A stretch of 64,000 nucleotides of DNA from Euglena gracilis (taxonomy: Eukaryota): NCBI GenBank assembly GCA_039621445.1, contig CP154954.1, positions 19,020,642-19,084,641 of the forward strand, in the 5' to 3' direction. The translations under genes were made by a program, and so were the position numbers. The notes under the pieces are model-generated. The model saw nothing but the letters and a program-made list of their open reading frames with translations. It did not search any database and had not been told where the DNA came from. How positions within the stretch are numbered: position 1 is the stretch's first letter; every line of letters starts with the position of its first letter. Below are positions 28,484-51,118 of the stretch, piece by piece.

Positions 28484-28688
28484 GTTTCACCTTCTCAGGG
28501 CATCAAATATTTATTGAGCAGCAAGCTCACATTGCCATGGCACGGGGTCCCTTGTGGGCTGAGTTCTCAGAGAAGTTGGAAGACTTCAAAAATGCCGAAA
28601 AGAACGCAAGGGTGTTGTTGCTGCAAGGGCAGAGATGTGCCTTCTTTGCTCTGAAGTTGGCTGTGCCGCAAACTTTGACTTTCACAGC
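28484..28688 (+). CDS. Host gene exon (5' boundary uncertain)
   Basis: Reads EQQAHIAMARGPLWAEFSEKLEDFKNAEKNARVLL...TFTA. Joins 30848 in phase 2 via ACC-CAGTATCCAAGA / TTTTGGACCCTG-CCAGT|G. Confidence 0.55.
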
Positions 28689-30847
28689 ACCCAGTATCCA
28701 AGAACGAAGATTGATGGATCTTTTTTGCAATGCTGCACTGGACACTAAAATGAGATACTGTGCGCGTGTGCGTGTGCGTGTGTCTGTGGTGCGCTGTGTG
28801 CAAATCCTTGGTATGACCCACTTGGGCGATCCTGCCCCTTGGGGAAGGGGGTTTTGTTCCTCAGGGGAAGGGGATTTTGTTCTTCATTTCAAAACATTGT
28901 TAGTTCAAGGTTTGATTTTCCCTCGCCTCACAAAGTTTTTTTAACCCCCAAAGACTCCATCCATTGGCCTTTGCATTCGAAGCAGCGCACAATGCAATGA
29001 AATCCCGACATGCGGCATTTGAAGCACGCCTTGAAGCTAAACAGGCAACAGACCATCGATTGCATCTGGACATGAGCTTTGCAGCCAGTGGTCAAAAGCC
29101 CTTCATTTGTGGACTGGAGTGAGAATGTGTTCGCAGTCACATCCATATCAACAACATATTTCCCTCCATTGTTGTGGTCAGGGGTCCGGTGAGAAAGGTT
29201 GGCCGGAAATAAAGGGGGGGGGAGTTTGTTGACTCTCTGTTGAAACGTGGTAAATTTGATGGAGTTTTTGGAACCTCCACACAAACTTACCAAACTCTAA
29301 GCACAATTTGAGCTCGGGCATAACAGATTTTCAATATTTTTTTTACCAAACCTCACAATTCAAAAGCGGGTCAAACACCTGAAAAAACTCAGAAATGAAA
29401 AACCTGGGGGGTAAGGAAAGTGGTATTTACCCCCCAGTTTTCAAGAAATTTCCAAAAAAAATGGCCAAAAAATGAGGCATAAACCCAGACTCATGCCCGA
29501 GCCGGGGTCTTGGACCCGTACTCGGGCGGGAATTTCTCACCCAAGTCCGGGTCCTAGATCCCGGCTCTGGCGTGAGTCTGGGGTTGAGGGAATTCCTTCC
29601 AAATGTGTCCGAGGACAGTTTCAAAAATACCAAAAATGCCACATTTTGTTTACAAAAGTGCCAAAATCCCAAGAGCCAACCCCAAAATTCATTGTGCCCC
29701 AAATGCCAAAGTTTATTTTCCCTTACTTCGGCAAGGCGTTGATGTAGGCTGCATCCCAAGAGCGAAGAGACAAACCAGCTTCCTGTGTTCATGTGTCAAC
29801 GAGAATGTTGTTTGTCAATGAAATGTTTTCCTGCAATCTATTGTGCAAATACCAAAAGAAATGCCATTAGCAAACGTCGCCGGTCCCCATGCCGACGGGA
29901 AAAAAGCCACATCCCCTTTCGGTAAAACCCCTCTCCCCTAACCGACACTAACTTATCTCGCTAACTAACACTAACACACCTAACCCTACCGAACCCCAAC
30001 AACTTAACACTGACCATTCAAATCTTGAAACGGAACTTATTCCTAATTCCAGTGACTTTTCTGGTTGACATATCGCAGATGCCATTTTTGTTCTCCTACA
30101 AAAAACTCTCCACTCTCCATTGCACATGAGCCACACCCAACCACCAACACAACACACCAACGAAGGCAACAAGAGGCACACACCCCTCCCCCCAAAGTGC
30201 CAAAAAAAAGCTAAATGTTGGTTACTAAAGTGCCATCAATGCCGAACTTTGGTTGCCATTGCTAAAAATGCAAAATGTTGGTTGTGAAAGTGCTGGAAAT
30301 GCAAATACCAAAGAGATTTTTGGTTACCAAAGTGTCCAAACCGGCACTTTGTTCACGACAAAATGCCAAGATTATTTCCCCAAAGTGCCAAAAATGACAA
30401 ACTTGGTCATTTTCCATTTCCAGCTTGCTCACAAATTTTGAGTCCGTTCCAATTTCGCGACCTGAAGGGTCTTAACTCTTTGCCCTAAACAGGGACTCAG
30501 ACCAGAACAGTGCCTAGGCCAAGGTTTTAGGGGGCACGGCGCTTTCGGCTTCTCAGGGGAGCGCTCCCCTAACTCTTGACCTAAACACAGTTCTTGGCAT
30601 AAAGACCTCTGCCAATTTTACCAAACTCACAACCTTGAGATCCCACAGCCCCCTCCCCTCCCCTGGGGGGGGTTGGCGACAAAAAAATGTGATGAATTTT
30701 TCTCCACTGACCACAATCCCCCTGAAAAACAAAGGGACAAAAAACTCGCCAGGACATCCTAAACAACCCCTCTCCCCAAGTTTTGGACACACTGCATTTT
30801 GGGTGCATGCAAACTTGCCACGACCCCAAGTTTTGGACCCTGCCAGT

Positions 30848-30954
30848 GGCGGAAACACTGGTGGAAGCTGTTGTTACGGAGGCTTTTCAGGCAGTCTGGT
30901 CTGAAGCTTTGCAGCGCGATCTCTGGCAGTTGAAGGAGGTGGAGGACCAGGAGA
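30848..30954 (+). CDS. Host gene exon
   Basis: Reads AETLVEAVVTEAFQAVWSEALQRDLWQLKEVEDQE. Intron 30955-32538 is GTT-CAGGGTT / AACCCTG-AGGGT|G, in frame. Confidence 0.75.
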
Positions 30955-32538
30955 GTTCAGGGTTGCTTGGGACGCCTTCTTCCTTCATCCCCCCAGGGAG
31001 GCATTTGTTGGGGAGGGGGCAGTTGGCCCTCCCCCCCACTCACAAGAAAGAGTGGACCCCCCGATTCCCAGGCTCCATCACGTTTGATGTCAGAATTGGG
31101 TTTGGGTCAGGGTTGGGATTAGCGATCAGGGTTCTGGGGTTTAGGCCCAATTTAGGCCTAATTTGGTCCAAATGGTGCCCCAAAATGAAAATGGATTCCA
31201 AACCCTACCTCCTGGAATTAACCCGAATCTTACCCGAAACAGGTGAACTTGCCCCACACAAGTGGCCCCACCCTGGCAGCACACCACCTACTCTCCCCCC
31301 CAGGTTACCCAGAGGCAGGGGCTGCTGAAAAAAGCTTGCCCCTGGTGCCCCCACCAGATTGGCCGCCCCTTGGGCGGCCTCGGACCCCCAAATGGCCAAT
31401 CTGGGGGGGGGGACAATCTTGCACGTTCACCATTTTTGACCAAAATGGCCGATTTGGGAAGTACACCAGATTGTCCCCCCCCTCGAGATTGGCCTTTTGG
31501 GTTTTGTAAGATACCCAGGCCAAATTGGCCGTTTGGTATTCGGAAATTTACCGTGCCAAATTGGCCGTTTTTTGTCATTTTTATACCCGTGAATTGGCCA
31601 AAAATTGGGGGGGAAAACTTGGAAAAAGTTTTACCCCCCCCCCATTGTCCATTTATTTTCTTTCAAGCATTGGCGACCAATGAATTGCCATTCCTTCTTT
31701 TCCAGGGCCAGTGGACAGTTGATGGCAAAGAATGAGCTGACAATTTTGCCACGTGACTTTTTTGGACAAAGGTTGGGCATGGCAGTTCTTTTCTGACCTG
31801 AAATGCTGAAATAGTAAGGGGGGACGCCAGTAACATCGAGTTCCTGTTCAGCTTCTCTTTTTTTCAGCAAGCTCACACCCTGCAGCATCCCCTGGTTTTA
31901 TGGGCACACAGGGTGGGGGTGGTATTTCAAACCCCCAGGGTGGGATTTTGGATTTTTTTTGTGTTTTTGGGTGTTTGGCAAAATTTGTCTTCTTTTGTGT
32001 TCATTTGTGTGTTTTTGTGTTTCCCCCCCCCCCGGCAATTTCTCCGTTTCTGCAAGGATTTTTTTTTTACTCAGAAAATTCTGCATTTTTATTCCGCCCC
32101 GATTTTCCCTCAGGCGAAAACGGGTTCTCATTTTTTGTTTTTATCGTATTTTTTGAAGTATGTGAGCAAAATCGAATTAACATTCATCTTAAAAATAGAA
32201 TTCTTGTTTCAAAAAAAGCAAAAAGAATTTGTTTTTTGGATGTTTTACATTTTTTTTGCTGTTTTGATCATGCCTTTTCTTTTTTGGAGGAAGAAGAAGA
32301 GTGTCCAAAACATGCCACTATGCATAACAATGTTTTTGAAAACATTTCAACAACTCTGTCAAAAAAGCTCCAAAAACCTTGTTCGTTGGAGTTTTATTCA
32401 AAGTATCAATCCGTTTCAAAAACAGGGGCATTTGATGTATTTGGCTATAATCGCCAGATGTTTCATATGCAAGTAGCCCAAGTATTTCCCCTCTCTTCCT
32501 CCCCCCCCAGAATTTCCCTCCCATGAAACCCTGAGGGT

Positions 32539-32583
32539 GGCAAGCATTGGTGGATGAGGAGGAGTCGATGCGCAGGCTCAATG
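32539..32583 (+). CDS. Host gene exon (3' boundary unresolved)
   Basis: Reads RQALVDEEESMRRL, continuing the previous exon. The link to the 35.1-kb exon was not solved. Confidence 0.65.
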
Positions 32584-35105
32584 GTTTGCCATTGCCATTG
32601 CTTTATTTTGTTTCCAAAGTCTTCAAGACCAGGCCAAAAAGACACTTTGACAACGAGCACCATCTCATTTCTCTGTGTTTTCTCCGATTGTTTTTCATAG
32701 GAGGGGTGATTGTGCACCACTTCCTGCTTGATCAGCTTGAGTTTTGTGAGTCTGAATGACATCGCTCTTGCAGAGTTTTTATTACCGAATTTAATTCAAC
32801 TTCATTGAATTATTTTTCTTTTGGCCACGAGCAACACCACACACACACGCACAGCCACCCACACCCAACACACAACCATACATGTTCAAGCCGGCACTTT
32901 GAGGAGACCAGAAAAGATCTGCCAGGGTGGACACCACCCATACCCCCCCCCCCCCATAAAGCGACCCCCAACCCGGACATTGGTCCAAAAAAGGCCAAAT
33001 TTTGACGGAGCCTTCAAAATAACCCAATTTCAGATTCTTTTCCGATCTGTTCACAAAGAGCTCTCTGAGATCTTTCTAAAAATGCATAAGAAGTTGGCCC
33101 AAAACTACTAGGTATCTTCCTACCACCATACCCCCCTGATTGACCAGGTTTGCAGAAGTGCTGAGCTCTTTGCATAGAATGGCAATCTGGGGTGATGATG
33201 CCTGCAGGCTCTTGCTTGAGCGTTCGCGGTACCCCACCCCCGGGGGGCACTGAGCTGCAGCTAGTCCGAATTTGGTCAGTGGAATTCCTAGTGGACCCTC
33301 CGGGGGGTATGTTAATGGAATTACACCAGAGTTAATTACACCAATTTACTCACCTGGCCAGGCGGAGCAACAACAAACAAAGCACTGGTGTGAGGGGCAC
33401 TCACTGGGCACCAGGCCACTCACCACACAGCAAACTGGGCCAGAAGTGAAGCTAGCACCGGCCATAAACAGACAAGAAGCCTTAGTGCAACTAAGGGTCT
33501 CTAAAATTTTGACTCCCAAAACTTGCCGAAAATGCCCATTTTTGGCCATTTTTGGTATTTTTTTTTTGGAGCAGAATCATCCAAAAAATAAATAGTAAAA
33601 ATCTCATTTTCCCACTGCCGGAGGAATTGTTTTTCCCAGTTGGGGGATCCCTGGACCCCTCCCCCTGGGGGGGGGGTCCGGAGTGTAGAGGGGGGGGGTT
33701 CAGCACAAGTGGTTGGTTTTCGCGTTAAGTGAGATATTTTGGGGCATTTTGGTGGCAGTTTCTGGATCAAAAATTGATCTTTCCCAAGAATCTGGAAAAT
33801 GAAGCAGAACCAAAGGAAATGTCCGGCAAATGAGGCCATTGGAACGCCCATCTAACCGTATTTTTACTTTCCCGTAACTCCGTACCAAGCCGGAGTGATG
33901 GCCATATTTATGCATTTGTTTATTTTATTTTTTTGTTTCTTTTATGGTCACGCGGCCCACCTTTTTTTGCCTGTTTTGAATTAGCCGTTCATCAGCCATT
34001 TTAGGACAAAAAAATCGCCCCCCCCCAAATGTCTCGAAAATGATGGAATCACTGGAGACCTAAAATATAGCCCTGGAGACCCTTTATCACCCCGCCGTGT
34101 AGGCCTCCAGGGCCAGCTGCACACTTTGTTTTTCTTTGTTAGTTGTTGTTTATTTGAGATTAATTTTTTTTGTATTCTTTATATTTTTAACACACAATTT
34201 TATTATTGAACCTTTTTCATTTATTTTTTTTGCTTTTTTCCCCTGATGTTTTTATTTTGCATTTTTTTGCTTCAATTTGTCTGCCATTCTTTGTATCAGT
34301 TTTGATTTTCCTCCTTTTTTTTCAAATTTCAGGGTTTGAATTGTGGTTGTGCTTTTGACACGTATCTGTTGCCCCCCACTGAGACACTGCACAACCCAAC
34401 GACCTCATTGTCTAACACCCAGGCGTTTGTCAAGGGCCCCGGGGAGTCACTGGCTAGCCACTAGAAGTGACTAGACACTGGCAAAAAGCCACTGACACCA
34501 AGCATTGAATTCTCACAAAGGAAAAATTTGGGGCATTGTTTCAAGCTGTTTCTCACCTCCCCAAACCTTTGCAGTAACATCCCAGGTTGACAAGGCAGAA
34601 GTTGAAAGCAGGGGGGTTTTTTTTAAAGCCGTGGACCCCCCGGGGGGGGTAGGGTGGGTGGGTTCGGCCGGATATACTATTTTTTTGGCATTTTTTTTGT
34701 GATTTTTGGTCATTTTTTGTGGAAAAGTGGTTGCCCCCCGGGACCCCCCCCCCCCCAAGAGGATGGGTGGGTCGGGGGGACCCCCCCTTCCCCCGGTCTT
34801 AAAAAAAACCCTGGAAGGTCTCAAACACGAATTCTGGGGGTTATGAATCCTGTATGTTGTGGTGACACATCTTAGGCACCCCAACTGACATCCCTGCTCG
34901 TCCTGGGGCACTGGATCACACCCTGATTGCATTATTTGGGTTTCGGGAGCCTGGTATTGCAATTTTCCCAAAAAATTGACGATGTCCGCATTTGCGCACA
35001 CGGACAAATCCTTAATCCTTAAGTGCGAGTGACACCGTCTAAGATTTAGGAATAGCCCGAGCTGATCACAAAGTGAGTGATAGTCTGTCCAGTGCCACTG
35101 CAATG

Positions 35106-35227
35106 GTCTTGCAGAGGCAGTGGGGGGTACCGCTGCTCGCCGAGCGCTGCATCTCCACCGAGCGGAACTGAGCCGCAAATATGCACAGCGCGCCATGCAA
35201 GCAGAAAGGGAGGAGCGGTTGTCCAAA
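35106..35227 (+). CDS. Host gene exon (5' boundary approximate)
   Basis: Reads AARRALHLHRAELSRKYAQRAMQAEREERLSK. Intron 35228-36019 is GTT-CAGAGCCAAG / CCTGGCTCTG-CATCA|G. Confidence 0.7.
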
Positions 35228-36019
35228 GTTCAGAGCCAAGCCTCTCTGATTCCTGAAGGAAAGGGAGAATGAAGACGGTCCAGTCTTACAGCCCTGAAGA
35301 AATTTGGTCTTCTGTTTGCAATTTTGAAATGCTGAACTGCGTTTCATGGGGTCAGATGGTTTAGGTGCGCCTGAGTGGGGGGGGGGCGAGTGGTTGGGTT
35401 TTCCAGTCCCTCTGCCCCGGGGGGGGGCACCACAGGCGAGAAGTGCAGCGAGAAGTGATGACAAAATGATGACAGGCCATAAGCTGACAAGAAGCCTTAG
35501 TGCAACTAAAGGGGTGGGGAATTACAAAAACCCCAGAAGCATCAAAAATATATTTACTCCCTCCTCATTTGGGCATCGGACCACATTTGCTTGCCCATGC
35601 GGGCCAGCTATATTTTTTCAAATTGAAATTTGAAATGCTTTTATGTCAGTATTTGAATGAGAAACAAGCAGGGTTGGGTTCAAGGATTTTCCCCACATGG
35701 GAAGGTGCTCCGACACATTTTGTCATTATTTGGGAATTTGGGACATAACTTTTGTACGCATTCCATTAGGAATGTATGGATTTGCTCTTTGAGGTCAAAA
35801 TCAAATGGGTGGTTTGCATCTGAAAGGGATGAAATGCAATTATTTCCTTTGGAGCTGAGAACAAAGCCAAAAAAATAGTCTATATTTTTATTCTGATTGT
35901 GCTCTCACAATTGCTTGCTTGTATGTTTATCTGGTGAATCTTTTTTTTTTCATGAAGTGATGGTGTACATGATGTATGCTCCTGATCTTTTGCAAAAAAT
36001 GCAACCTGGCTCTGCATCA

Positions 36020-36040
36020 GACTTTGCTATTCAAATGTGG
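36020..36040 (+). CDS. 21-nt micro-exon (DFAIQMW)
   Basis: Paired nonconventional junctions on both sides, both phase 0. Intron 36041-37589 is AAC-CAGGCTTTTCCA / TGGCGAAGCCTG-CTGGT|G. Confidence 0.7.
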
Positions 36041-37589
36041 AACCAGGCTTTTCCATTGGGAGCCAAGCAATGATGTATTTGCTCAAGTCTCGTAGTGCAA
36101 CTTTGTATTCTTCTGCTTGGTGAAGGCCATTCTTTTTGCATTTCATGGCTTTTACGAAATTTTACCTCAGTTTCTGCAAATTTTTATCATTTTCCCCATT
36201 TCAGCACATTTTTCTGTGCAGTTTTTGGACCCCCCATATCTGCCCTTGGGCGTCCACTGCATCTTGACAGCAGGTTCAGACGTTAGGTCAAGGAATTCCA
36301 CAGATGGACGGATTGTGACCTAACCCCCCCAAATAACCCCCCAAAAAGCACCCCCCCCCCTCAGGGGCCAATTTCAATTGCGCCCAAATAACACCCCCTG
36401 TTTTCCTTTGGTTTTCAATGTAAAAATACCCCCCCCCCCCAATAACACCCCCCCCTGGCACCCCAGTTCGGGTGCCCAAATAACACACTGGGGGTGTTAT
36501 TTGGGTGGGGGGGGGGTTACGTTGTTCAGGCCACCAACAGATGTTGCTCCTGTTGTTCAGGAGTGTGGCCTTGAAAAAGGCTACAGCATGAGCAATCCCG
36601 GGGTTCTAAATATCTGGTGTTCGATGATTTTCGGCAACTTGCAGGTTCGAAAACTTCCGGAACGCAGTGTGTGTGTGCATACGCGTACATTAACACATAC
36701 ATTCTAAACATACATCCACACATCATCATCATCATCATCATCATCACAACCGCATCCACACACCATCAGCAATCGCATTACCCCCCTTCTTTGAAATTTA
36801 TGCTCCCCCCAATTTGATTCAGTAAATTTGACTCAAAATGCATGGAAACACTTTGGAATGACCTTGAAACTGTCAAAAAACGTCACATATTCAAAAAATT
36901 TTCACCCCCGCCCAAAATACCATACCCCCCCCCTCAGTTAGTCACCCCTTGGGAGGGGAATTTGGCCAAGGGTGACTAATAGGGGAGGGTGACTAATTCG
37001 GGGGGGGGGGGCAATTTATGCCCAAATTTTGCCCCCTGCCCCAAGTCTTGGGGTTTCAAGGTTGTTTTTGGGCATTCCAGGGCACTTTTCATGGATGGCA
37101 ACCAGCAAAAAATTCTGACGACCAAATTCGGCTTTTTTTTAAGAAAAATATTTTCCTTCGGAAAAAATTGTTTTTGCCTGGGGGCCCAAAGATGACTTAT
37201 AGGGGGGGGGGCGACTAACTGAGGGGGGGGGAGGGCATGATAACCAAATCCCCTTGTGTGTGCCAGGCAAGGATGGCCACAGGTAAACGTCTAATGAACT
37301 CAGTGGGCCTACGGGGGGGGTGCTGCCCCCGGACCCCCCCGCCCAAAATAACAAAATCTTTTTGTGCGTGCAAGGCATGGATGGCCACGGGTAACCGTTC
37401 TAATGAACTTAGTCGGCCTACGGCCTCCTCCGAGGGGGGGGCAGCTCCCCCCCGCCGTACCCCCCGCCCAAAATAATCCGCAGCAGCTGTGTCAACACGT
37501 ACCCGCACACCAAGGTGCGCGCAGACAGGTGCGTCCAGTGCCAATTTGACATGAATCTGTCCGCGTCGTTTGTGGCGAAGCCTGCTGGT

Positions 37590-37693
37590 GACTTGAATGC
37601 TGAAGAGGCCGCAGCCCGGCGCCAGATAATGGCGGAGGAGCGGCTGGCCATGGCTAAGGCGCGCCACTCCGAGCTGCAGGCGTTCAAGGCACA
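37590..37693 (+). CDS. Host gene exon
   Basis: Reads DLNAEEAAARRQIMAEERLAMAKARHSELQAFKA. Intron 37694-37898 uses AAC-CAC / GTG-GAGGT|G. Confidence 0.75.
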
Positions 37694-37898
37694 AACCACC
37701 CGGCCATCAGCGATTCGGCAACCAGAACCGACGTTTAACAGCGTGGCGTTCACACGTGTACCTTTGCCAGATTGCAGGTGAAGTATTCTCCCTTCCCAAA
37801 AGGTCAACTGCATTATAGACTAAACCCTGCTGTCTTGAGTTGCCAGGCACACAAAGGGCCACGCCCCATCAGTGACATGGTGGGGGCGCGGTGGAGGT

Positions 37899-37979
37899 GT
37901 TCACTGCCCAGCGGCAGCAGCAGTCCCGCTTGCTGGCAAACCGGCTCAAGGCGGAGGAGGCTGCAAAGCGCCAGTTGCA
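37899..37979 (+). CDS. Host gene exon
   Basis: Reads FTAQRQQQSRLLANRLKAEEAAKRQL. Intron 37980-40336 is AAC-CAGGCTGAAT / AATTGGCCTG-TTGCT|G. Confidence 0.75.
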
Positions 37980-40336
37980 AACCAGGCTGAATACAAGGAT
38001 GCCCCCCCCTAGTCTGACTCCCCGGGGTGTGTGGGGAAGGACACAAGGCCCAGCTGACTCAGTGCCAATGGCACCGGAAGCCCGGAAAAGACCCATTTCC
38101 TGCAAATTCTGTTCATTTTCCCCCATAATGGGCCATTTTTCAATTCTGTGCATTTTCTTGTGTTTCTTCGGCTTTTTTGGTTCATATATGACGTTTGTAT
38201 TTCTTCCCTCTGATTTGGGCACCTTCATGCCATTCACTTCAGGCGGCAAAATCACTTATTTCCACTGATTTTTCTGCTTTTTTGGAGTTTATTCTCACTT
38301 ATTTTGCCGCTTATTTTGGGGAGATTTTTGCGCTTATCCCCCCCCCCCCTCAGGTGGAATTCCTCTTGCCAGGGTGGTCCGTAAGGGACGGGATATATAT
38401 GTATATATATTTTTATTTAAGGACCGCCCCCTTAAAGACCGCCCCCCCCAATACACAAAAACCCGAAAAATTGGACCCGAAAATTTTTTTCCGGCGCCTT
38501 CAACGCCGGCTTTTTTTGACCCATTTTGGGACCCATATGGGAGGTAAAACTAAAAACCCCTCAAAATCCCATTTTTTTCACACCTTTCAAAAGTTCAACA
38601 TTTTCTCAAAAATTTAATTTTGAGAGTTTTTTGAAGCAAAAAAAGCCATTGAAAATTTCCAAGAGAAAAAATGGTACACTTTTTTTTCGACCTTCGTTAT
38701 TTTCCACCCCCCTCCAAAAAATTACCAAATTTAACCCTGAAATCTTTGAGATTTTTTGTGAAAAAAATGTGGGATTCCATCAAAAAATCATTCACTTTTC
38801 AAAAAATATTTCAAAATTTTTTTCGGCCCAAATCCCCTTTTTCCCGAATTTGGTTTTTTCTTGAAATTTTGAAATTTTGTTGAAATTGAAGTTTGCCAAA
38901 AATCTTTTGGCCACTTTGGGGGGGGTTGCCCTTTGAGGGGGGGTGAGGGTATTTCAATGTCCAAAATTCAAAAAGTTGAACTCACAAAAAGCATCGATTG
39001 GACGATCCTCTCTTGTAAAATTTCCTCGAAGGCACGTTTGGAAGGTTTATGTCAATTTACAACACACCTGGGTTGTAAACGAGAAAAAAAAGTGTGTGGG
39101 TTGATGATTTAAAGCTTGAGATAAACAACCAATTGCCCAATTTTTGAAAATGACCCATCAACCTCAAAATGATCATTTTGAGAGGAAAAAGAGCACGGGG
39201 GGGGGGAGAAAGTTGCGCCGTGCAATTTTTGCAATTTTGTGCAATTTTCGATTTTCCTGAAATGTGCAATTTTTTTTTGCAATTTTGTGCAATTAATTGC
39301 ACATGGCCGCTGGATGATGAACAAATTCAGGATGAATGGCGTAAGCATTGCCATCGCATATTGCCACGGCTGATTGTGTTGCAACTTTTTGGGCGAACCG
39401 ACCAGGTAAATTGGCAGAATATGCAGCTTTTCTGGTTTCTGGTATCTCTTTTCTGGTATGTGCAATTTTGTGCAATTTTGTGAATTTTGTGCAATTTCAC
39501 CTCTAACCATCAAAACGGTGAAGTTCCCGGTGGTCCAAAAAATTGGTGCCACCAAAACAACGGGAAGAGGGTGGTGGTGGGGGGGGGTCGACCCCCCCAC
39601 CCACCTGCACACGGGCCGGTGAAAAACTGCACTGGGAATATCTTGCAAATAAGAAAACCCTTCTTGCTCTTTGAAGCCTTTGGCTTGTGTGACATTTGGC
39701 CACAATGCTTGGGGCAAGGCCCAATCTTCTTCAGGCACTTGTGCTCCTTTGCGGCACCACGAATTTCGAAATCCTCAACTCCAACTTCAACCAAAATTTG
39801 CAACAAAAAAACAACAGTTTTTGTATTTTGTCCCTAGGAATCCCAACATAAATAGTTGAATCTGCTCATCCTCAGGAGGGGCGACCCTTGGCCGGTGAAC
39901 CGGTGAAGTTCCAAAAATTTTCCCCAGCGTCTTCGGCAATGGGTGTATTTTAGACCCATTTTGGGACCCATATAGGAGGTCCCACAAACCCCCCCCCCAA
40001 AAATGCTATTGAAAATCCATCAGATTTCCAAAGAGAAAAAATCTAAGTAAATTTGAATGTTCCAAAATTTGGTCCCATTTTTTTGATCTGATTTTTTGAC
40101 CCCCCTCCTAAGAACTAACAATTTTCAACCCTTAATTTTTGGATATTTTTTGGGGGAAAATGTGGTTTTCCATCAAAAAATCATGTATTTTGGGATCATT
40201 TTTCAAAATAATTTTCAAGAATTTTCCCCGGCCAAAATCCCCGTTTTCCCAAAATTGTGTGTTGGGACAGAATTTTTTTTTTAGTTAGGGACCCTCCTGC
40301 AAGAGGCTGGGATTTCGCCGAAATTGGCCTGTTGCT

Positions 40337-40385
40337 GATGCAAAGGTTTGCGTCGGAACGGTCCGCAATGCTGAAGCAGATGCTC
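40337..40385 (+). CDS. Host gene exon
   Basis: Reads MQRFASERSAMLKQML. Intron 40386-41509 is GGT-CATGGGTTT / GGACCCATG-GGGAC|G. Confidence 0.75.
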
Positions 40386-41509
40386 GGTCATGGGTTTCTT
40401 CAGGCTGTTGTGTACCCCTTTCAAGAGGCAGCAACCAGGTCTCTACTATTCAGCCTCTAAATTTCTTTGCTTGCGGAGGGTTTTACTCTTCCTCCTCAAA
40501 GTTTCAAAAAGGAGCATTTCATGTTCCTTTGTCTGAAGATTTTTCAAAAAAACAGAACTAGGGCGTCACTTAAGCCGAAGGGCACCCCATCCCCTGGGGG
40601 GGTCGAGCCAACCATTTTTTGACAAAGGGTTAAAAAACCCCGATTTTTTGGATGGTTAATTGGCTGTTTTTTTTTTTTTGCGTAATTGGCTGCTTTTGTT
40701 GACATTTTTGCAGTTTCGATTTTTTTGGCACCCGGTTCGACCCCCGGTCAGACCCAGTTCCAGTAAGGGGGACCCCTTTGGCGGAGGCAGCCTTTTCCCG
40801 CCAGCCCAAATTTCCAACCTCGAAGCTGGACCTCCCCTGGGGGGTTGCCATGCGACGCCATGTTTGAAACAAAACCCCTTTGACCCTGTGTTCCTGCAGC
40901 GACCCTCTATTTTGGGACCTCGTCATTTTCCACTGTTGAGACTCAGGGAACAGACCCAACCTTGGTGTTTTTTGGCCTGTGCGCCTTTTCGGGCAACAGA
41001 AATGGCCCGAGTTGTGGCCATTTTACAGTGGCTTGCCTCCAAGTGCTGCACACTTGGGATGGTTTGACTTTGCGTTTTTTGGGACCATTTTGGGGGTCAA
41101 GGAATCAGATTTTTCAATTTCTGTGTGCATTTGTGTTTTGGTGGTGACTTTTTTTGCTCACTGCTGGCAATAGCTTGATCCGAAAATTGTTTTTCAGATT
41201 TATTTTATTTTGTGATTAATGTTTTGTTTTGTTTTGACATTTTTGTGTTCTTTTTGGGACCAGGAAGTTCAAAAAGTGCAAATGCTGTTGTTCGGATATT
41301 CGATCACCCAGGTACCGAAAATGGATTTAATTGAACTTGTGCTTTTTTCTCTTGCACTATTTCCATGTATTTCTGATTTTTTTTGCATTTTTTTCATGTC
41401 GCATTTTGGAGAGTCCCTTATCGCGTCCCTGATGAGAACGCTAAACAGGATGAGGAATGAAATAATCATGATGATGACAGTGACCATCGATGGAGGGACC
41501 CATGGGGAC

Positions 41510-41535
41510 GTTGCCGAGGCTAAGTTGTTGGATGC
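41510..41535 (+). CDS. 26-nt micro-exon (VAEAKLLDA)
   Basis: Intron 41536-42242 is AGA-CAGAGCTG / CGGCTCTG-GCCCC|G, phase 2. Confidence 0.7.
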
Positions 41536-42242
41536 AGACAGAGCTGTGACGTTTTTCTGGATGTTTGGGTTGTTTCTCACTTCTGTCAAGCCAGTGGTAG
41601 CAGCAGTGCGTGACTGACTGAACCTTTTCGACTTTTTGATTTACCCCCCCCCCATTTAGTACGACCAATGAAATTTTTTGAAAATGACCCCCCCATTTCT
41701 TACGACCACCTTTGGATTTTCCACCAACTCAAAAAGGTAAACAATTTTTTCCTTACAGCGTGCTTGTTGTTTTTTGAACCCTCGGGTTTTTTTTTTTGCT
41801 GCCTAGGGAGAGGGGGGATAAGCAGGGCTATGGGAATCTTGGAAACACGGCTGAATTACGCACCCATATCTGGTGACAGCCCAGCTCCCCTGGGGGGCGC
41901 TGCCAGCCCTGAAAACCAGCCCCCTTTTGGGGGGTCCAGGCAAAAATTTTGTTGAGGTCAAAAAATGGCCAAAAATAATGTTTTGGGCGTGCCCTTTTTT
42001 TGGAGGGGGGTGTGGGTGTTACGGGGGTCGGGTGGGGGGGAAGGCATTCCAGGGTTGAAAGGCCTTCTCTAGAGAGGTTTCAACGTGTTCCGGGGGGGGG
42101 GAGCGCACAGACAAAAGGGCCAGAGGCGAACAACAGCACCAGGCCAGAAGAAGGGATAAAAGGCACCAAAAAACAGCCACAGTGCACACAGGGGGGGGGA
42201 GCGCTGGGGCACCCACCGTGCAGTCCGGCCGGCTCTGGCCCC

Positions 42243-42392
42243 GTGCGCCGCCCACCGGGTCGCCGCGGCGCACCGCGCGGCCGCGCTGGAGCGGGCCACT
42301 GCCCAGCTCGTCCACGCCGCGCTGCGGCAGGCGGTGGCGGAGGCGGCGGCGGAGGCGCGGGCCCGGGACATGAGCCCGCCGAAGCGCGGCAC
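42243..42392 (+). CDS. Host gene exon
   Basis: GC3-rich; reads CAAHRVAAAHRAAALERATAQLVHAALRQAVAEAAAEARARDMSPPKRG. Intron 42393-43228 is AGC-CAGCCGCCTTTGG / CCATGGGCCGCTG-TGGCC|G. Confidence 0.8.
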
Positions 42393-43228
42393 AGCCAGCC
42401 GCCTTTGGCTGCCCACCAACGCCTGTCAGTGGATCTTCTGTTGGTGAGTGGGGGAAGGGTTCGGCAGTGTTGGTAATGAACCAAATGCCACAGCAATTTT
42501 TCTTTGCTTGCTGGTCTTTGGTGGCTTGAATTATTTGTATCTGAAACCACACCAACCTCACCTGCCAGGACCATGGACTCTCTGGCATAAATCTAAATTT
42601 TCTAAATAATCCAAATTTTCTTTTGGTGTTTTGCACCAGTTTATCATATTGTTCCCCAGAAAAAAAGTTAGGAAAGTGCCAGCAAGCACACTTTCTGGTT
42701 GATCCGGGGCGGGAAAATTCTGGCCTTGGGCGAAAACCAGTCTTCATCCCCATTTGAAAACGCTTTCTGGACCAGCAGTAGTCTGGATCGGGAACAAATT
42801 CTGTTGCGCTGTCAATGTGATGAGCGTCAAAGAGAAGGATTGGCTGCCCCTTCTTGGGCAACAGAAAATCACTGTACTGTGGTGGAGTTGTGTGGGCGTT
42901 GCTGCTGCTCCCGGTTGACCCTCTCCATCGTCGACTGCAGGTCCTTGTCCTTCCCCGTCACATGCAAACTTGGCCCCCCTACAGTTGGCCTTCAGCCTTA
43001 ACTTTCAGCCTTGACCCTATTATTCGGCTTACCTTGACCACTTTGTGCATGGCCCGCTGAAAGTTGGTTGGCCACCTGGCCTGGCCTTACCTTGACTCGT
43101 GGCCCAGCCAAGCGCCCCCGGGAGGGGGAGGTCAGCTGCTTCTCGATGGGGGCGGCCATAAGATCGCCTTAATCAGTTATGTTCTCCGGGCAGTTTGAGC
43201 GCCCATCCGTCCATGGGCCGCTGTGGCC

Positions 43229-43394
43229 GTCCTTGCGCCTGCGGCCGGAGGTGGTTCGGGAGGTGGCGGAGCAGCACGCCGTCACGGTGTCGCCGGTGAA
43301 GGCGGCCCCGCCCGCCCCGCCCCCCCAGGCGGTGCGGCCGGGGGAGGCCCGGCCGGAAAAGACGGGCCGCCGGGTTTTCATCCGCCGGCAGGGC
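43229..43394 (+). CDS. Host gene exon
   Basis: GC3-rich; reads SLRLRPEVVREVAEQHAV...RRVFIRRQG. Intron 43395-45037 is GCA-CAGGAGC / GCTCCTG-CGGCC|G. Confidence 0.8.
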
Positions 43395-45037
43395 GCACAG
43401 GAGCCGCTGGTTTTTTTTTGGAGTGAAGGCGTATTCCAAAATCACGTAGAATCACGTAACCCCCCCCCCCCCCAACTAACCCCCCCCCCCCTCGGGGGTA
43501 GCAAACCCCCCTGTTTTCCTTTAGTTTTCCATGTATCAATAACACACCCTTATGGCTAGGATTCTAGGCCTGACGTTTGGCATAGACGCGGGGCTGAAGT
43601 GGGGCTTAAAGTGGCCTTCGCTTAAAGACCCCCGGGGCAGGGCAGAACGGGAAGCGGCCAAACAGCCAGGGTGGTGGGTGGGGGGGTCGACCCCCACCTC
43701 TTCCCGTATTTCCGGAAGGACCAATTTTTGGACCCGAAAATTTTTTTCCTTCAACGCCGGGTGTTTTTTTGAGCCATTTCGGGACCCATATAGGAGGTCC
43801 CCCCAAAAAACCCCCAAACCCCATTTTTTTCACACCTTCCAAATTTGAGCATTTTCTCAAAATTTTGCTTTTGAGAGTTTTTGAAGCAAACAGTGCCATT
43901 GAAAATGCAAAAAAATTCAAAGAAAGAAAATGTCAGTAAAATTTGACTGTGCCAAAATTTGGTCCATTTTTTGACCTTTGTTTTTTCACCCTCCTCCTAA
44001 AAACTACCAATTTATAAACCTGAAAATTTTGAGATTTTAAATAAAAAAAAAAATGTGTTTTTCCATCAAAAAATCATTCATTTGAGTTCAATTTTTTAAA
44101 AAAAATTCAAAAAACTTCCCCGGCCAACATCCGTTTTCCCAAAATTGGTGACAATGCTGTGGTGGGTGGGGGGGGGTCGACCCCACCCCCCTCCTCCCAG
44201 GTGGGGGGGCGACCCCCCCCCCAACCAGTCCTTCCCATTCTGCCCCTGGGGGGTTCCACTGGACTGAACTTTCCACTGGCTGGGGAAAAAGCCACCAGCT
44301 ATCCCCCCCGGGAGGGGGGGTCCCAGCGTCCACCCACCAGGCCTTCCCTTTTTCAGGTCAAATTATCCTTCGGCGCCGAAGGAATTTTCTTTGCGCCGGT
44401 GCCAATGGTGGGAGGGGGAGGTCGACCCCCTGGACCTCCCGGGTGGGGACCCCCCCCCCCCACCAGACCTTCCCATACAGCCCTGCCAATCGCCCCCAAA
44501 ATTGACCCCCGGGGGATATGGTTGCTGTGGGGGGCACCCATACGCAAAGCACCCCTTGGGACAAAGAAGCTGGCTCCCACCTCATGTTCTCCAGAGCCCC
44601 AACAGAACAGCTTTGGGGAGCGTTGCATTTCCATCTGGACGGAGCAACCCTGCCCCCCCCCAGTTCGACATGTGTGGCCACCCGATGGGAAAAGCGTCCC
44701 CAGCAGGGGTTTTTTTTTTAGTGTTGGACCCGGGGGGGGGGGAGGGGGGGGGGGTGTGGCCGGACACACCCACCGGCGGGTACCTCTTTTTGGCTGGTGG
44801 GTGCCCGGCACCGAAGGCGCCGGATTTTTTTTTTTTGACCAGCGCCAAAGGCGCCGATTGCATGCATTTTCTTTGTCGCGCCTCTCGACCCCCCCCCCCC
44901 TAAAAGTGGGTCGGGACACCCCCGGGGGGGGGTCCCGACCACTTTTAGGTCCGACCGTCAGGGGGTGGGTGGGGGGGGGACCCCTCCCCCGGTCTGTTTT
45001 AAAAAAATGCCTGTCCCCAACACCAGCTCCTGCGGCC

Positions 45038-45166
45038 GAGCGGCTCCGGAAGCAGCGGGAGGAGGCGGCCGGGGGCCTGTGGTCCGCCAAAGACCTGTCC
45101 CTGCTGCGGAAACAGCAGGCCGTGGGCCGAACGATGGTAAACCCGAATGCGCTGACGTTGCCGCCT
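45038..45166 (+). CDS. Host gene exon
   Basis: Reads ERLRKQREEAAGGLWSAKDLSLLRKQQAVGRTMVNPNALTLPP. Intron 45167-46798 is TCC-CAGAGATGGGCT / GGCCCACCTCTG-CCTGC|A. Confidence 0.7.
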
Positions 45167-45695
45167 TCCCAGAGATGGGCTCGCAACCCCCGAGGGAATG
45201 GGGCGTGGGCGTGCTCTAAGCCCCCTTCCTATTCATGTCTGGTTCCATGGGTGAACCCTAATTTAACCATCACCTTAAGCTCGCCCTAAACCTTCCCCAA
45301 ACCCTATTTTGGCAGCGAGCACCCTGTGTTGGACGAATGGTGGACACCACAGTTCTGGTGTTGTCTCTTTGGTGATGGGGATGTAGGGGGATCAAAAGTT
45401 TTAAGGGGAGGTTCATATTTGGTTGGAGGGGGGATTGAGTTTCATGAAACCCACATTATGTTGCTGAGCTTGCACCTTAGTTTTTGTTCTGTAAGTGCTG
45501 GTTTCAGGAAAAGACGCTCATTTTGCAATAAATGCACATTCAAGGGGTCAAAATTTTGGGATATGCTGGTGCAGATCTGAGGGGAGGTCTTATTTAGGTT
45601 TTTTCTGTATGCTGCATTGTGTGTTGCCGGTGGTGGGAAAGTTTAGTCGCAAATGGCAGAACTTTTTTTGTTGGCCATTTATGAAAGAACTGCTT

Positions 45696-46128
45696 TAACC
45701 CCCCCCCCAAATACCTACCCCCCCCCCCCCCGGGAAACTGTTACCTGACAGGTTGGCCAGTACCCGGGACCCTGACAACTTCCTATCATGACAGGTTGGC
45801 CGGTACCAGGGACCCTGACAGTTTCCCGGGCGGGACCCTGACAGTTTCCCGGGTAGGACATTTCAAGGGAAAGTCAATAAAAAAATGACCCTGACAGGTT
45901 GGCCGGTACCGGGGACCCTGACAACTTCCTATACTGACAGGTTGGCCGGTACCGGGGACCCTATACTGACAGGTTGGCCGGTACCGGGGACCCTGACAGT
46001 TTCCCGGGCGGGACCCTGACAGGTTCTCAGGCATGACAGTTTCCCCGGGGGGGGGGTAGGTAATACCCCCCCGGGGTATTATTTTTTCGCCCAAAGTCCC
46101 GGCCCGAGGGTGTTATTTGGGGGGGTAA
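45696..46128. mobile_element. Nested small TIR elements with an internal CTGACAGGTTGGCCGGTACCGGGGACC tandem array
   Basis: Outer ends TAACCCCC..AAATA / TATTTGGGGGGGTAA; inner ends TACCTACCCC..GGAAACTGT / ACAGTTTCCCC..GGTAGGTA. Confidence 0.6.
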
Positions 46129-46798
46129 CAGCACCCCAGAATTTTCGAAATTTTTCGAAGTCCCGTGGGACCCAAAATAGCACCCAAACCCTGGGGTCGT
46201 TTTTTTGTCCTTTCTGTTCTTTTTGGAGGCCAGATGATCAATTTTTTCGTAATTTGTTGTCAGAGATTGTTATTTTCCCCCACATTTTCAGGTCAAAATC
46301 CGGGTCGTCAGCCCGAGATTGGGGGGGGGGGGGTATTAACTCGGTGGCCGAAGTCGGACCCCGAGGGGGGGGTATGATTTTGGGGGAGGGTTTACTGAAG
46401 GATGTTCTTTGGGGTTCGGATCATTTTTTTTTGGTTGAGAATTTTATGTGCAGAAACATTTTTTTTCACTTGAGAGAGAGAGAGAGAGAGATATATATAT
46501 ATATGTATATATATTCTCTTTTTTTTGTACATCCAATTAACTCTCCGCCTTCTTCAGTCTTCAGTCTCCTCACCCGCATTTTCTAAGAGGTGAGAGGTTG
46601 ATAACCCAGGGTATGTCGCCAAACGTGTTGCCACCGACCCCGACCCCGACATTGCTGCCTTTATTGGCTGCTTTGTCATTATGGCAGATCTAATGCCTTT
46701 TACCGGATGACTTTTCCTGCTGGGGGGGAGCAATCAGATGCATTGGCTTTGTTCATTAGTTCAAATGCCTGGAAGGTGCCTGGCCCACCTCTGCCTGC

Positions 46799-46809
46799 AT
46801 TGTTTCACC
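46799..46809 (+). CDS. Putative 4-11-nt micro-exon
   Basis: Followed by TCACCATTCAA, which pairs with TTGAGTGGTGA (46939-46949). Several registers keep the frame. Confidence 0.4.
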
Positions 46810-46946
46810 ATTCAATGTCCAAGCCCCACTTCTAACCTGACTTTCCACCTGGCCTTTGCTTTCCATGTCCTGGGTGAGGCTTCTGAGCCGTTGACCGCCT
46901 CCGATTAACGCACTTCCCGGTGCGTCGTTTTTTTTTTTTTGAGTGG

Positions 46947-46998
46947 TGACGATGAAGCTGTGAAGTGGAATGAAACACTGAGGAAGAAACTTGGCGGA
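46947..46998 (+). CDS. Host gene exon (5' boundary uncertain by ~7 nt)
   Basis: Reads (DD)EAVKWNETLRKKLGG. Unspliced read-through hits TAA after 5 codons; the spliced product stays open. Confidence 0.6.
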
Positions 46999-47001
46999 GA
47001 C

Positions 47002-47201
47002 CAGGCTTTTGCTTAAGGGATTGCAGGGCCCCCCCCCCCCGCGGGGGGGGGGGGGCTGGACTGCGGCTAGTCCAAATTTGGCTAGTGGGTTTTCTAGCAG
47101 ACCCCCCCCGGGGGGGTCTAGCTAGTCCACTTTTTCCAGTGTCCAGCCGATTGGCTAGTCAGTGTCCCCTACCCCCCCCCGGGATCTTAAACAAAAGCCT
47201 G
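47002..47201. mobile_element. hAT-like MITE with perfect 8-bp TSD GCGGAGAC, coinciding with predicted nonconventional intron 46999-47206
   Basis: TIR CAGGCTTTTGCTTAAG / CTTAAACAAAAGCCTG; TSD at 46994-47001 and 47202-47209. A relative starts at ~33205. Confidence 0.9.
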
Positions 47202-47206
47202 GCGGA

Positions 47207-47338
47207 GACGCCACTTTCCTCAGAGTTCTGGCCGGGGCGTTTCTTTCGCCAGAGGGGAGCCCACTGACCCAGGGCCGCCCTCAGACGTCCTCCTTTTTTC
47301 CATTGAGGACCGTCCCTTGCGGACAGTCCTTGGGCTGA
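47207..47338 (+). CDS. Probable last (or near-last) exon of the host gene
   Basis: Reads DATFLRVLAGAFLSPEGSPLTQGRPQTSS..., open for 43 codons to TGA at 47336-47338. Confidence 0.55.
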   Translation, partial: DATFLRVLAGAFLSPEGSPLTQGRPQTSSFFPLRTVPCGQSLG

Positions 47339-47945
47339 GGGGCTGGCCAACGGCCAGCCTGAGGCTCGAACGGGGCAAAAATCAAAAGTCGAAGAACGCA
47401 TTTTTGACGTTTTGGGTGGATGGGCGATGGTCCAAGGCTGCAGAAATCACTTTTCTGTGTTGTTGGAAAGGCCTGCAAGCCCTGGGGGGCAAGTTATGGT
47501 CTGATGCCAACAGAGGAAGCTTTAATCTTCAATGGGCCATGTTGTACCTCGATACCCGGATACCCCTTTTCTAATTTCTCACCCAAATGAGGTCGAGTTT
47601 CCATCATTTCCTTTCCATCACTTTCTGTTCAAAGGAGCCTCAGCGACTTCTTTATGCATTCTGTCACATGTTCCGCTCCCCCTTTCCCATCTGTCCATCA
47701 CACACCCAGGTGATGGAAGTGCTCATGGCCTGCCATTTCTGCAATCTGTCGCCACATGGGTGATATGGGTGACTTGGGCAGCGTGGCTTGGGTGTCACCC
47801 GCGCCAGCCAAGAGTCCGGCACGCTTCGTCCCAAGCATTTTCATACGTTCACAAAGTAGAAAGTTTTCTTTTTGTTAACGTTGCTCACTCTCAACTCGGT
47901 GGAATTGGATGGCATGCCCCGGAGAGGCACTCCAAGAATCCAGAC

Positions 47946-48298
47946 CAGGCAATTGCTTAAGCACTGACCAACCCCCCCCCCCCCCCGGGGGGGGGGGGGG
48001 GACTGGTTTTTTCAGAGTGACTGACTGGTTTTTGGCCCGGACCCCTCCCCCCCCGGGGGGGTTGGCCAGGAGTGGGCAAAAGTGGCTTGAGTGACCCCGG
48101 CGCCGAAGGCGCCGGAAAAATTCTTTGGGCCTAAAATGGCCTAAAGTGACTGGAAAGTGGCCGTTTTTCTGAGTGGCCGACCCCCCCCCGGGGGTAGTGA
48201 CTGGCTGGTTTTTTGAAAATGAGTGACTGACTGGTTTTTAAAAAAAGTGGAGTGACCCCCCCTCCCCCCCCCCCGGGGGGTCGGTAAGCAATTGTATG
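47946..48298. mobile_element. hAT-like MITE (CAGGCAATTGCTTA...TAAGCAATTGTATG), perfect 8-bp TSD ATCCAGAC
   Basis: TSD at 47938-47945 and 48299-48306; GTGACTGG subterminal motifs. Confidence 0.88.
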
Positions 48299-51118
48299 AT
48301 CCAGACCATCCCCAATGCTTAAGGTGTGTCCGACTCCACCCAGGCGGGGGGTGACTGTCTGGTTTTTTCTTCTTCGGAGTACTGGTGGGGTTCTTGCTCT
48401 GAACCTCTGGGGGGGGTTGGCATGTTAGCCGAAGGTGGCCGCCCGGCGCCAAAAGCGGCAAATTTTTTTTGGGTGTTTTGGGCAAAATCTATTGATTTTG
48501 AGCCATTTTGCCGAGTGGCCAGACTGACCACACCCTACGGGGGGGGGGGGAGGAAGTGAATGACTGGTTTTCGAAAAGTGACTGAATGATTTTTGAAAGT
48601 GGAAAGTGCTCCCCCCGGGGGGGGGTCAGAAATGGTGTGGGATTATGTGCAATTATTTGCACATGCCGTTCTATTCTGCATAAAAATATAAAACACAGGC
48701 ATCCCCCTGGGGGGAATGTCCTCCCAGGAAACTGTCGCCCGTGCACTCGCTGACCTGTCCTCATTGGGACCTTCCCACCAGGAAAGTGCCGTTGACACAG
48801 GGGGGTCAACAGCAGGGTGTCATAATAATAATAAAAACAGACCGCTCCAGCAACAATTGGCCTCCACAATTTCACCATTGGCTCTCATATGGCACCAAAC
48901 ACCAACACCAAGTTCATAGTGAATTTGAAGCCATGGCTGGCAAGGAGATCCAACACAATCTTGAAGCGTCTTGGCTGAATTTCCTCAGAAACTGTGTGTG
49001 TCCAACGCAAAGAAAAAACTTCTCTTCCAGAAAAGTCCCGTTGGCACGGGAGGTATGGCAATGACACGCTGTGTCAATGACAAGGGGGGGGGGGAGGTAG
49101 CTCGCCCCCCATGAGGGGGGGGGGAACCTGAGCTGGGCCGGGTTGGGCCAAAACCGGACAATTGCCCAACAAAATGACGTACAAAAAGCACCTTGGAATA
49201 AATGAGCATCTGACAACCACCCAAAAATAAACACCCAAAGATCCCCCCAAAACACCATTTTTTTACCATCTCTGGACACTTTTGGGCTTGACCCAGCACA
49301 AAGAGGCTGGCTAGCTGGGTTAGCCCCCCCCCCCCCCCCCCGAGTGGTGCTGCTGCGGTTGGGCTGGACCGGATTTGGACTGGCTGCAGCGCCCCCCCCC
49401 CCCCCGGATGCGGGGTCTGCAGGGCCTTGAAGGGAGGTATGGTCAGGGTCATTTGCTTGGATAGGGTTTGGGTTATGGTTTGGAATTGGAGCCGGAGTGC
49501 CCAGGCCAAGCGTGTTCCCAGTTGGGTCTGGATCATCGAAAACGTCCATCGAATTGTACAACAAATAATGTTGTACAATGAGAATTTTTGTCAGAGGTGA
49601 CAATTTTCTAGGCCCTTTCCAGCAGGTGAGTTCCTAAAGGACTTTACATGCAGTTTTGCATTTTTTTTTGCATTTTTTTTGCATTCACATTGCATATTTG
49701 GAGGTTTCTCTTTGTACATCTCCCTGTGCATATTTGTATTTTATTGCACCTCACTTTTTTTTGTCAACCTTTTTGTCAACACAGCGAAACAACACATCAA
49801 CCATCATTTTTTTTGAATTTATTCCACAAATCACAAAAAACAACACATCAACCATCATCGCACAGATATTTCTGAGACGGGGATTCAGGAACAATGATCA
49901 AAAATCTACAGGGATTCACAAAAAAAACCTGTGCAAACATTAAAAAAAGGTACCAATTGGAGCCGATTACTGGTTTCACCTGAATGTTTTGAAAAAACCT
50001 GTCCCATCAAGGGTGAAATGTTCTGAAAGTGGCAGATAAACCAAGGCTCATGTTGTCAATAGCAAGGATGCTCAGTGCATCTTGTGTGCATTCCTGGGCA
50101 CCTGGTTTGTTGGGAGAACTCCATGAGAGGATCAAATGTTGGATTTGTTCTCGAAAGCACAACATTTGAGCCTTCCCCTCCTCTAACTTTTGTGCTATTG
50201 CTCACCGATGTTGATTTCACTCTTGTGTGTTGCAGTGCTCAGCGTCCGTTTGTTTGCGAAGCCTCTTTTGCCCCGTCCCAGAAAACCAAGATGGTGGATG
50301 GGGGACCCGGAGCCCGACTGTTCCTGTTCATGGGCGATGTCCCCCCCGGACAACTGGCATTTTCCATTTTCTGGCGTGGCGCACCGCTTTTAGAGAGTTT
50401 CTGGCCAGGAAATCGCCCGTGCTCTCACGCATCTCCCAAGATTCGTACTCCCTCGAGAAAACCGACAAGGGAGAAAGGGACACAGTGCACCCCGGGGACC
50501 TTTAGGGAACCAGGAGGAAATGACCAGGAGGGCGAAGCACAAGGGCAGGGCGAGATCCTGCTTGTTTGTGCCGGCTGTTTGTTCATGGTGTGGTCTTTGG
50601 TGTGGTGCTTCTTACTGCGTGTTTGTTGCCGGAGGTGGCGGTCTCGTACTCCCTCGAGGAAAACCGACAAGGGAGGAAGGGACACCGAGGGCGAAGCACA
50701 AAGACCTTGTGAGTCTGGTGCGGCTTTTTGGACTCGAATCGTCTTTTCCCCTCGGGCGGGCGGGCGGACTCACACTGCCCTTATGCTTCGCCCTCCTGGC
50801 CATTTCCTCCAGGCTCCCTAAAGGTCCCCGGAGCGCACGACCACTCGGGCGGCGCACTTTTTGGGTGAGATTTTGTGCACTAGATTGTCGATTTTTTCTG
50901 CCGCCTTTTTTGGGGCGTTGATGCGCAAATAATGGGATGTAAAACTTTTTAGATCTTTCCACTTACCAATTTGGCACACTTCCTCTGAGTCCAAGCCAAA
51001 AGACTAAAAGAAAGAGACCCCTGCACCTCTTTTGCTGTGTGCCCCATACAGGGCAGGGACCCCCTGCTGCAACAAAATTTTTTTTGTGAGGCCATTGATG
51101 GAATTTGGCTTCAAAGCG

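Follow-up and report, generated by a model that had tools for sequence, protein, structure and literature searches.

A Euglena gracilis gene with a spliced-leader-bearing mRNA, interrupted by 15 nonconventional, end-paired introns

Nonconventional introns, which lack GT/GC-AG borders, carry complementary ends and have junctions that can be slid along an alignment, are a well described feature of euglenid nuclear genes (PMC11170887, PMC12501133). They account for 16,151 of the 28,337 introns catalogued in Euglena gracilis (57%), with termini that pair (PMC11170887), and for 71.8% of the introns of E. agilis (PMC12501133), while a count on a draft genome gave 8.5% non-conventional and 11.1% intermediate introns among 271 (PMC6366073). 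Conventional introns of E. gracilis are bordered by GT/GC-AG and display a GTGTG 5' consensus and a C-rich polypyrimidine tract (PMC11170887). In this work, we examine a 64,000-nt window of E. gracilis DNA (the whole stretch analysed: assembly GCA_039621445.1, contig CP154954.1, positions 19,020,642 to 19,084,641, forward strand), in which a gene hidden behind introns of this kind had been proposed from the letters alone. We consider it about 95% probable that a single, expressed nuclear gene of E. gracilis occupies the plus strand from 28499 to at least about 50212, a gene whose mRNA receives the spliced leader (SL), which is interrupted by 15 nonconventional introns, and which encodes a helical protein. 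Introns of this class have been published together with their code and their abundance, and the gene is a fresh and well-documented example of them; it differs from the described cases in that every one of its introns is nonconventional, two of them in the 3' untranslated region (UTR), and in having exons of 21 and 26 nt.

RNA was aligned to window positions 27800-47799 using four of the 24 available runs, all under one species label, namely X6, X11 and X14 (contig sets from three studies) and X21 (raw reads, recorded as RNA, of which about 5% of the run was read); X20, a probable DNA run, was not among the four. In each of the contig sets a single contig of 1504-1720 nt, devoid of the introns, covers the region end to end. 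Fourteen joints are common to all three of these contigs, and each is crossed by 3 to 97 raw X21 reads. A 15th we infer from loose ends that continue past 47726 in 24 X21 reads and the three contigs, which share a 30-nt consensus with a single match in the window, at 50043-50072, and so place the last intron at 47727-50042. In all, there are 16 exons and 15 cis-introns, the latter of 116-2528 nt each and about 20.0 kb summed, in a gene of roughly 21.7 kb that yields a mature mRNA of at least 1.7 kb; the gene is as spread out as had been proposed, and the RNA extends it beyond the proposed 19 kb or so. Support in X21 falls to 3-9 reads at the joints around exons 11-13 (42243-45166) and stands at 76 at the next joint; nowhere in the gene region is G+C content higher than at 42-46 kb (0.56-0.57), and coverage bias is a likelier cause of the low support than alternative splicing.

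The 5' end of the message is equally well marked. The tail ATTTTTTTTC precedes position 28498 in 38 X21 reads and also in X6 and X14 contigs, and joined to G28498 it reproduces the 3' terminus of the SL of E. gracilis as quoted in PMC6242988 and PMC4778363, the final G of the SL coinciding with the genomic G28498. In the genome, the outron acceptor AG sits after a C-rich pyrimidine tract, in agreement with the published description of outrons, and in this respect it resembles the conventional introns of this organism (PMC11170887), whereas none of the 15 cis-introns has such borders. As in the described cases of nonconventional introns, the host is an SL-trans-spliced euglenid nuclear gene, and its product is a protein of the E. 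gracilis transcriptome.

The borders of the introns (numbered as in Table 1) set them apart from the conventional class. At no slide that the RNA alignment permits does any of the 15 read GT/GC-AG, so that the transcripts omit introns of just the kind that had been proposed, and no AT..AC pair occurs among the border pairs listed for them; the junctions can be slid in 10 of the 15. Intron 5 can be given a GT start or an AG end, never both in one register, and intron 4 can be given an AG end and not a GT start. Intermediate introns reportedly combine canonical borders with end pairing; the introns described here share the pairing, and intron 4 the possible AG, but none has both canonical borders. 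End pairing was expressed as the duplex energy between the first and the last 25 nt of each intron, and averages -17.3 kcal/mol over the 15 introns as compared with -8.8 kcal/mol for random pairs of the same length (n=3000); of 10,000 resampled means of 15 random pairs, none attains the value observed for the introns. Mismatched 5' and 3' ends of the same introns average -11.4 kcal/mol (n=210), and seven of the 15, taken one at a time, have energies under the 5% tail of the random control. All 15 are nonconventional euglenid introns and not GT-AG spliceosomal ones. At a 57% share, and with independence assumed, our own arithmetic puts genes of such size with 15 of 15 nonconventional introns at about 2 in 10,000, which suggests some clustering and is unremarkable genome-wide.

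The spliced reading frame comprises 463 codons, from the ATG at 28537 to the TGA at 46838-46840, and once 2 nt at 37887-37888 are omitted its translation matches P0002 (EukProt EG_transcript_9235) at 463 of 463 residues; transcript and protein of this gene were thus already public, and it would be hidden from GT-AG gene finders only. Both peptides that had been put forward as search queries are present in P0002. Exon 1 alone retrieves P0002 at 100% identity along with P0001 (133 aa), an intron-1-retaining product, found on six contigs, that reads through into intron 1. A GT/CA-type microsatellite lies in that intron at 28754-28792, and its length in P0001-type contigs is unlike that in the window.

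A profile search of 1.84 billion representatives returned seven proteins in all. The homologues include two proteins of the transcriptome GGOE01, which we take to be that of Euglena longa (64% and 62% identity), a Eutreptiella gymnastica protein (UniRef A0A7S1NEP2; 35% identity over 97% of the length), a Jenningsia fusiforme transcript, the metagenome cluster P0006 and the Logan fragment P0009. Those that bear a name are all euglenid (Eutreptiella, Jenningsia), and three records (GGOE01, P0006 and P0009) come without an organism name. The one match outside euglenids, P0008 (Haliotis, 2118 aa), is repetitive and matched in 24 short stretches, and we read the similarity as compositional. Conserved with the homologues are the helical core, a basic TGRR motif and a C-terminal LPPIxSPFNV motif, the latter two shared by the Eutreptiella protein; the C-terminus encoded in exon 14 is conserved among the homologues. 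Pfam returned no family for P0002 or for four homologues, a PDB sequence-profile search gave no match at E up to 1, the ESM Atlas held no usable match, and a literature search on EG_transcript_9235, supplementary tables excepted, found no papers. On these comparisons the protein appears to be restricted to euglenids and to have no recognised domain, and the other members of its uncharacterised family (A0A7S1NEP2 and the Jenningsia fusiforme transcript) likewise lack a named domain. The AlphaFold (AF2) model places helices at residues 6-42, 51-139, 148-217 and 238-344 without a compact fold (predicted template modelling score 0.21, mean predicted local distance difference score 62.6), such that the product is probably an all-helical, coiled-coil protein, with a role that would most likely be structural or scaffolding.

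Table 1. Coordinates of the gene, in window positions, with the RNA support of each joint. Code, the published nonconventional splicing code; a slash marks the splice junction; contigs, the end-to-end contigs of X6, X11 and X14; "as predicted", same as originally proposed.
Feature	Position	Strand	Remarks
SL trans-splice acceptor AG	28497..28498	+	mRNA body from 28499; 38 X21 reads, X6 and X14 contigs
Exon 1	28499..28701	+	5' UTR and codons 1-55; 100% identity to P0002
Start codon ATG	28537..28539	+	Translation through the joints gives P0002
Intron 1	28702..28978	+	277 nt, slide 0-3 nt; off-code; 97 X21 reads, 3 contigs
Exon 2	28979..29082	+	104 nt; overlooked originally
Intron 2	29083..30847	+	1765 nt; on-code N3-CAG...CTG-N5/G; 60 reads, 3 contigs
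Exon 3	30848..30954	+	RNA alignment
Intron 3	30955..32538	+	1584 nt; on-code; 57 reads, 3 contigs; as predicted
Exon 4	32539..32587	+	49 nt; RNA alignment
Intron 4	32588..35115	+	2528 nt, slide 0-1 nt; off-code; 82 reads, 3 contigs
Exon 5	35116..35227	+	RNA alignment
Intron 5	35228..36019	+	792 nt; on-code; 61 reads, 3 contigs; as predicted
Exon 6	36020..36040	+	21-nt micro-exon
Intron 6	36041..37589	+	1549 nt; on-code; 57 reads, 3 contigs; as predicted
Exon 7	37590..37750	+	161 nt; predicted end 57 nt too early
Intron 7	37751..37866	+	116 nt, slide 0-2 nt; off-code; 23 reads, 3 contigs
Exon 8	37867..37979	+	Window has 2 extra nt (CG 37887-37888) relative to RNA
Intron 8	37980..40336	+	2357 nt; on-code; 18 reads, 3 contigs; as predicted
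Exon 9	40337..40385	+	49 nt
Intron 9	40386..41509	+	1124 nt; N3 and N5/G geometry, CAT...ATG; 15 reads, 3 contigs; as predicted
Exon 10	41510..41535	+	26-nt micro-exon
Intron 10	41536..42242	+	707 nt; on-code; 8 reads, 3 contigs; as predicted
Exon 11	42243..42392	+	RNA alignment
Intron 11	42393..43228	+	836 nt; on-code; 3 reads, 3 contigs; as predicted
Exon 12	43229..43394	+	RNA alignment
Intron 12	43395..45037	+	1643 nt; on-code; 9 reads, 3 contigs; as predicted
Exon 13	45038..45166	+	RNA alignment
Intron 13	45167..46798	+	1632 nt; on-code (/A); 76 reads, 3 contigs; as predicted
Exon 14	46799..46869	+	Last 13 codons, TGA stop 46838-46840, 29 nt of 3' UTR
Intron 14	46870..47646	+	777 nt, 3' UTR, slide 0-2 nt; off-code; 11 reads, 3 contigs
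Cassette	46999..47206	+	208 nt, inside intron 14; perfect code fit, 10 contiguous terminal pairs
Exon 15	47647..47726	+	80 nt, 3' UTR
Intron 15	47727..50042	+	2316 nt, 3' UTR; N3-CTG...CAG, 7-nt 3' spacer, /A
Exon 16	50043..50212	+	3' UTR; extent inferred from a 170-nt X14 loose end, first 30 nt checked

Much of the original prediction is borne out by these data. It had proposed a hidden gene of short exons separated by end-paired introns without GT-AG borders, and spliced, SL-bearing transcripts together with an identical public protein now stand in its place; the protein-like islands that it joined in frame are real exons in RNA contigs and reads. Its exons, when joined, gave a long open frame rich in Ala, Glu and Arg, and the ends of its introns followed the pattern N3-CA(G/T/C)...(C/A/G)TG-N5/R with visible complementarity. 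Nine of its 12 introns are exact or within the 1-2 nt ambiguity of the alignment. Three are wrong: 28689-30847 is right at its 3' end only and in reality comprises intron 1, exon 2 and intron 2, 37694-37898 stands in place of the real intron 7, and 46999-47206 lies inside intron 14. Three real introns were absent from its list, and the link across 32.6-35.1 kb that it had left open consists of exon 4 (32539-32587), intron 4 (32588-35115) and exon 5 (35116-35227); the start codon, likewise left open, is the ATG at 28537. The first two errors depart from the real structure by 117 nt and 87 nt, and as each figure is divisible by three, the frame stayed open. The run of eight consecutive junctions between 35227 and 45038 contains seven that are right, 37694-37898 being the faulty one, and the assertion of a purine at the head of each downstream exon is true, at some allowed slide, for 14 of the 15 introns, with the exception of 46870-47646. 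Taken together, the observation is partly confirmed and the interpretation is supported with corrections.

Several points weigh against reading the locus as a single gene whose introns are all nonconventional. Six of the introns (1, 4, 7, 9, 14 and 15) lie outside the genetically defined code; the RNA status of X6, X11 and X14 is only guessed, although their contigs are free of the introns and those of X6 and X14 bear the SL tail; and the match to exon 16 covers its first 30 nt. The sequence of the window as written runs into a stop at codon 290 and gives no full protein. Moreover, a scan of 28.4-50.3 kb for the published code with at least seven contiguous Watson-Crick pairs produces 50 candidates on the plus (gene) strand and 47 on the minus strand. 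Only four of the 50 are real introns, and in five of the nine on-code introns the contiguous pairs number less than seven, such that motif plus pairing is by itself not predictive of real introns. Since the motif stands at background level, the success of the original prediction is attributable to its having combined the motif with continuity of the frame.

With respect to the code, nine of the 15 introns fit N3-CDG...CH'G-N5-6/R, all nine as CAG/CTG with N5, and in this they are like the described nonconventional introns, with CAG at +4 to +6, CTG at -8 to -6, spacers of N3 and N5, and a purine opening the next exon. This 60% is close to the 61.2% of E. agilis nonconventional introns in which the code is found, and although six of the introns here are off-code, so are 38.8% of those in E. 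agilis (PMC12501133). The causes of the misfit are varied. In introns 1, 4 and 7 the helix lies at another distance from the junctions; in intron 1, which is retained in some contigs, the terminal helix is further from them, and in intron 4 a CCATTGC/GCAATGG helix leaves a 3' spacer of 9-10 nt. Intron 9 carries CAT-ATG, in which the third position of the motif has changed in a compensatory manner. Intron 14 has TGA-TCA, within a TGAGGCT/AGCCTCA helix, and a downstream exon whose first base is a pyrimidine whichever slide is chosen, while intron 15 has an N7 spacer. Four independent RNA data sets show clean removal of all six. It is conceivable, though we would incline against it, that the machinery reads the geometry of the helix rather than the identity of CAG/CTG (or that a second nonconventional pathway exists), and that new introns arise from cassettes akin to miniature inverted-repeat transposable elements (MITEs) that land even in older introns. 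Exons as small as those of 21 and 26 nt would be compatible with pure intron definition.

One such cassette may be present in intron 14, where the mRNA shows no junction specific to the segment at 46999-47206. Many different RNA contigs cover the interior of this segment (about 47040-47130; 22 X6 contigs at 47065), which indicates that it is part of a dispersed high-copy repeat and would fit the idea of a MITE origin for nonconventional introns. Very high summed contig depth with many base differences was also seen at 33440-33500, 38470-40470, 42100-42170, 43640-44480 and 45740-46050; these intron segments are transcribed dispersed repeats, outside the mRNA described here. One 176-nt piece (39307-39482) was assembled in minus-strand orientation. 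By self-BLAST of the window, 11 of the 15 introns are free of intra-window repeats.

A further challenge comes from exon 8, as the copy in the window could be a frameshifted, non-functional allele or paralogue and the mRNA could derive from another, intact copy. The CG at 37887-37888, which brings about the stop at codon 290, is absent from all three contigs and from 19 of 25 X21 reads, the window having CGCG where the RNA has a single CG. Mixed exonic single-nucleotide polymorphisms in X21 at 35123 (48 of 117 reads), 40363 and 43310 suggest that two alleles or copies are expressed. However, the indel aside, the listed contig pieces equal the exons of the window with no other letter changed, and all junctions map here; the six reads without the gap may merely end close to the site. 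Because a run of G leads into CGCG at this position, as is typical of sites of assembly indels, an assembly indel is favoured over a real null allele, and a defective window copy seems to us rather unlikely.

The junctions, the addition of the SL, the reading frame with its public counterpart and the pairing of the ends were all observed directly; for the excision of the introns, we turn to the literature. By the helix-and-circle model, excision of nonconventional introns probably releases circles, through trans-acting factors that have yet to be identified (PMC12501133). In this gene, the pre-mRNA acquires the euglenid SL at the AG acceptor 28497-28498; under the model, complementary stretches just inside the ends of each intron would pair, with partners that are typically a CAG spanning +4 to +6 and a CTG spanning -8 to -6, and thereby draw the junctions together. 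The 5' cut would then be 3 nt upstream of the helix and the 3' cut 5-6 nt downstream of it, as a rule just ahead of a purine, and the introns would be released as circles.

It might be argued instead that the ordinary spliceosome removes these introns through degenerate non-GT-AG sites, and that end pairing is an accessory feature, on the pattern of non-canonical spliceosomal introns known from some other eukaryotes. Section 10 of PMC11170887 states that dependence on the spliceosome has never been put to experiment in E. gracilis, and intron 4 can be slid to an AG end after a pyrimidine-rich stretch. The complete lack of GT/GC-AG borders and a pairing that is both strong and specific to cognate ends speak against this, as do published experiments in which point mutations in CAG/CTG, or 1-nt changes to the 5' spacer, abolished the splicing of knocked-in introns (PMC12501133), and the report that nonconventional introns are removed after conventional ones (PMC6221363). 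We therefore regard ordinary spliceosomal removal as improbable, and retain the assignment of all 15 introns to the nonconventional class. That the whole pattern is a chance product of pairs chosen by eye, with no gene behind it, accords with code-fitting pairs being as common on the non-coding strand as on the coding one and with a quarter of the proposed introns (3 of 12) being false, but is refuted by spliced, SL-capped transcripts in four runs and by an identical public protein with euglenid homologues.

The two introns of the 3' UTR place junctions 29 and 109 nt past the stop codon, in an organism for which nonsense-mediated decay is suspected (PMC12501133, section 7).

The surroundings of the gene are rich in repeats. 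Open reading frames at 51119-52162 (minus) and 59148-60752 (plus) match Pfam RVT_1 (E 6.6e-07 and 4.1e-16, respectively) and more long open reading frames occur at 58.2-62.3 kb; these are retroelement copies just downstream of the gene. At the other end of the window, positions 1-6900 hold a repeat unit of ~3.4 kb in two copies with short high-copy internal repeats, each copy with a weak tRNA-like Rfam match (915-987 and 4282-4354). A tRNA-Thr(TGT) gene at 10956-11027 is agreed upon by ARAGORN and Rfam; Rfam and tRNA scans gave no match within the gene itself.

No new kind of biology is opened by this locus, given that the intron class, its code, its abundance and the transcript were already known. 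What it does provide is a gene model, verified by transcripts, whose introns are nonconventional without exception. Three of its features are worth keeping, namely the off-code introns, six in number, the micro-exons of 21 and 26 nt, and the two introns of the 3' UTR. A literature search found no paper on an intron-aware annotation of the E. gracilis genome, and the insufficiency of motif plus pairing implies that annotation of Euglena genomes must rest on transcripts. As a single transcript here combines nine introns that fit the code with six that do not, the gene constitutes a compact natural test set, which would be usable both for refining the noncanonical splicing code of Euglena and for the development of intron-aware gene finders.

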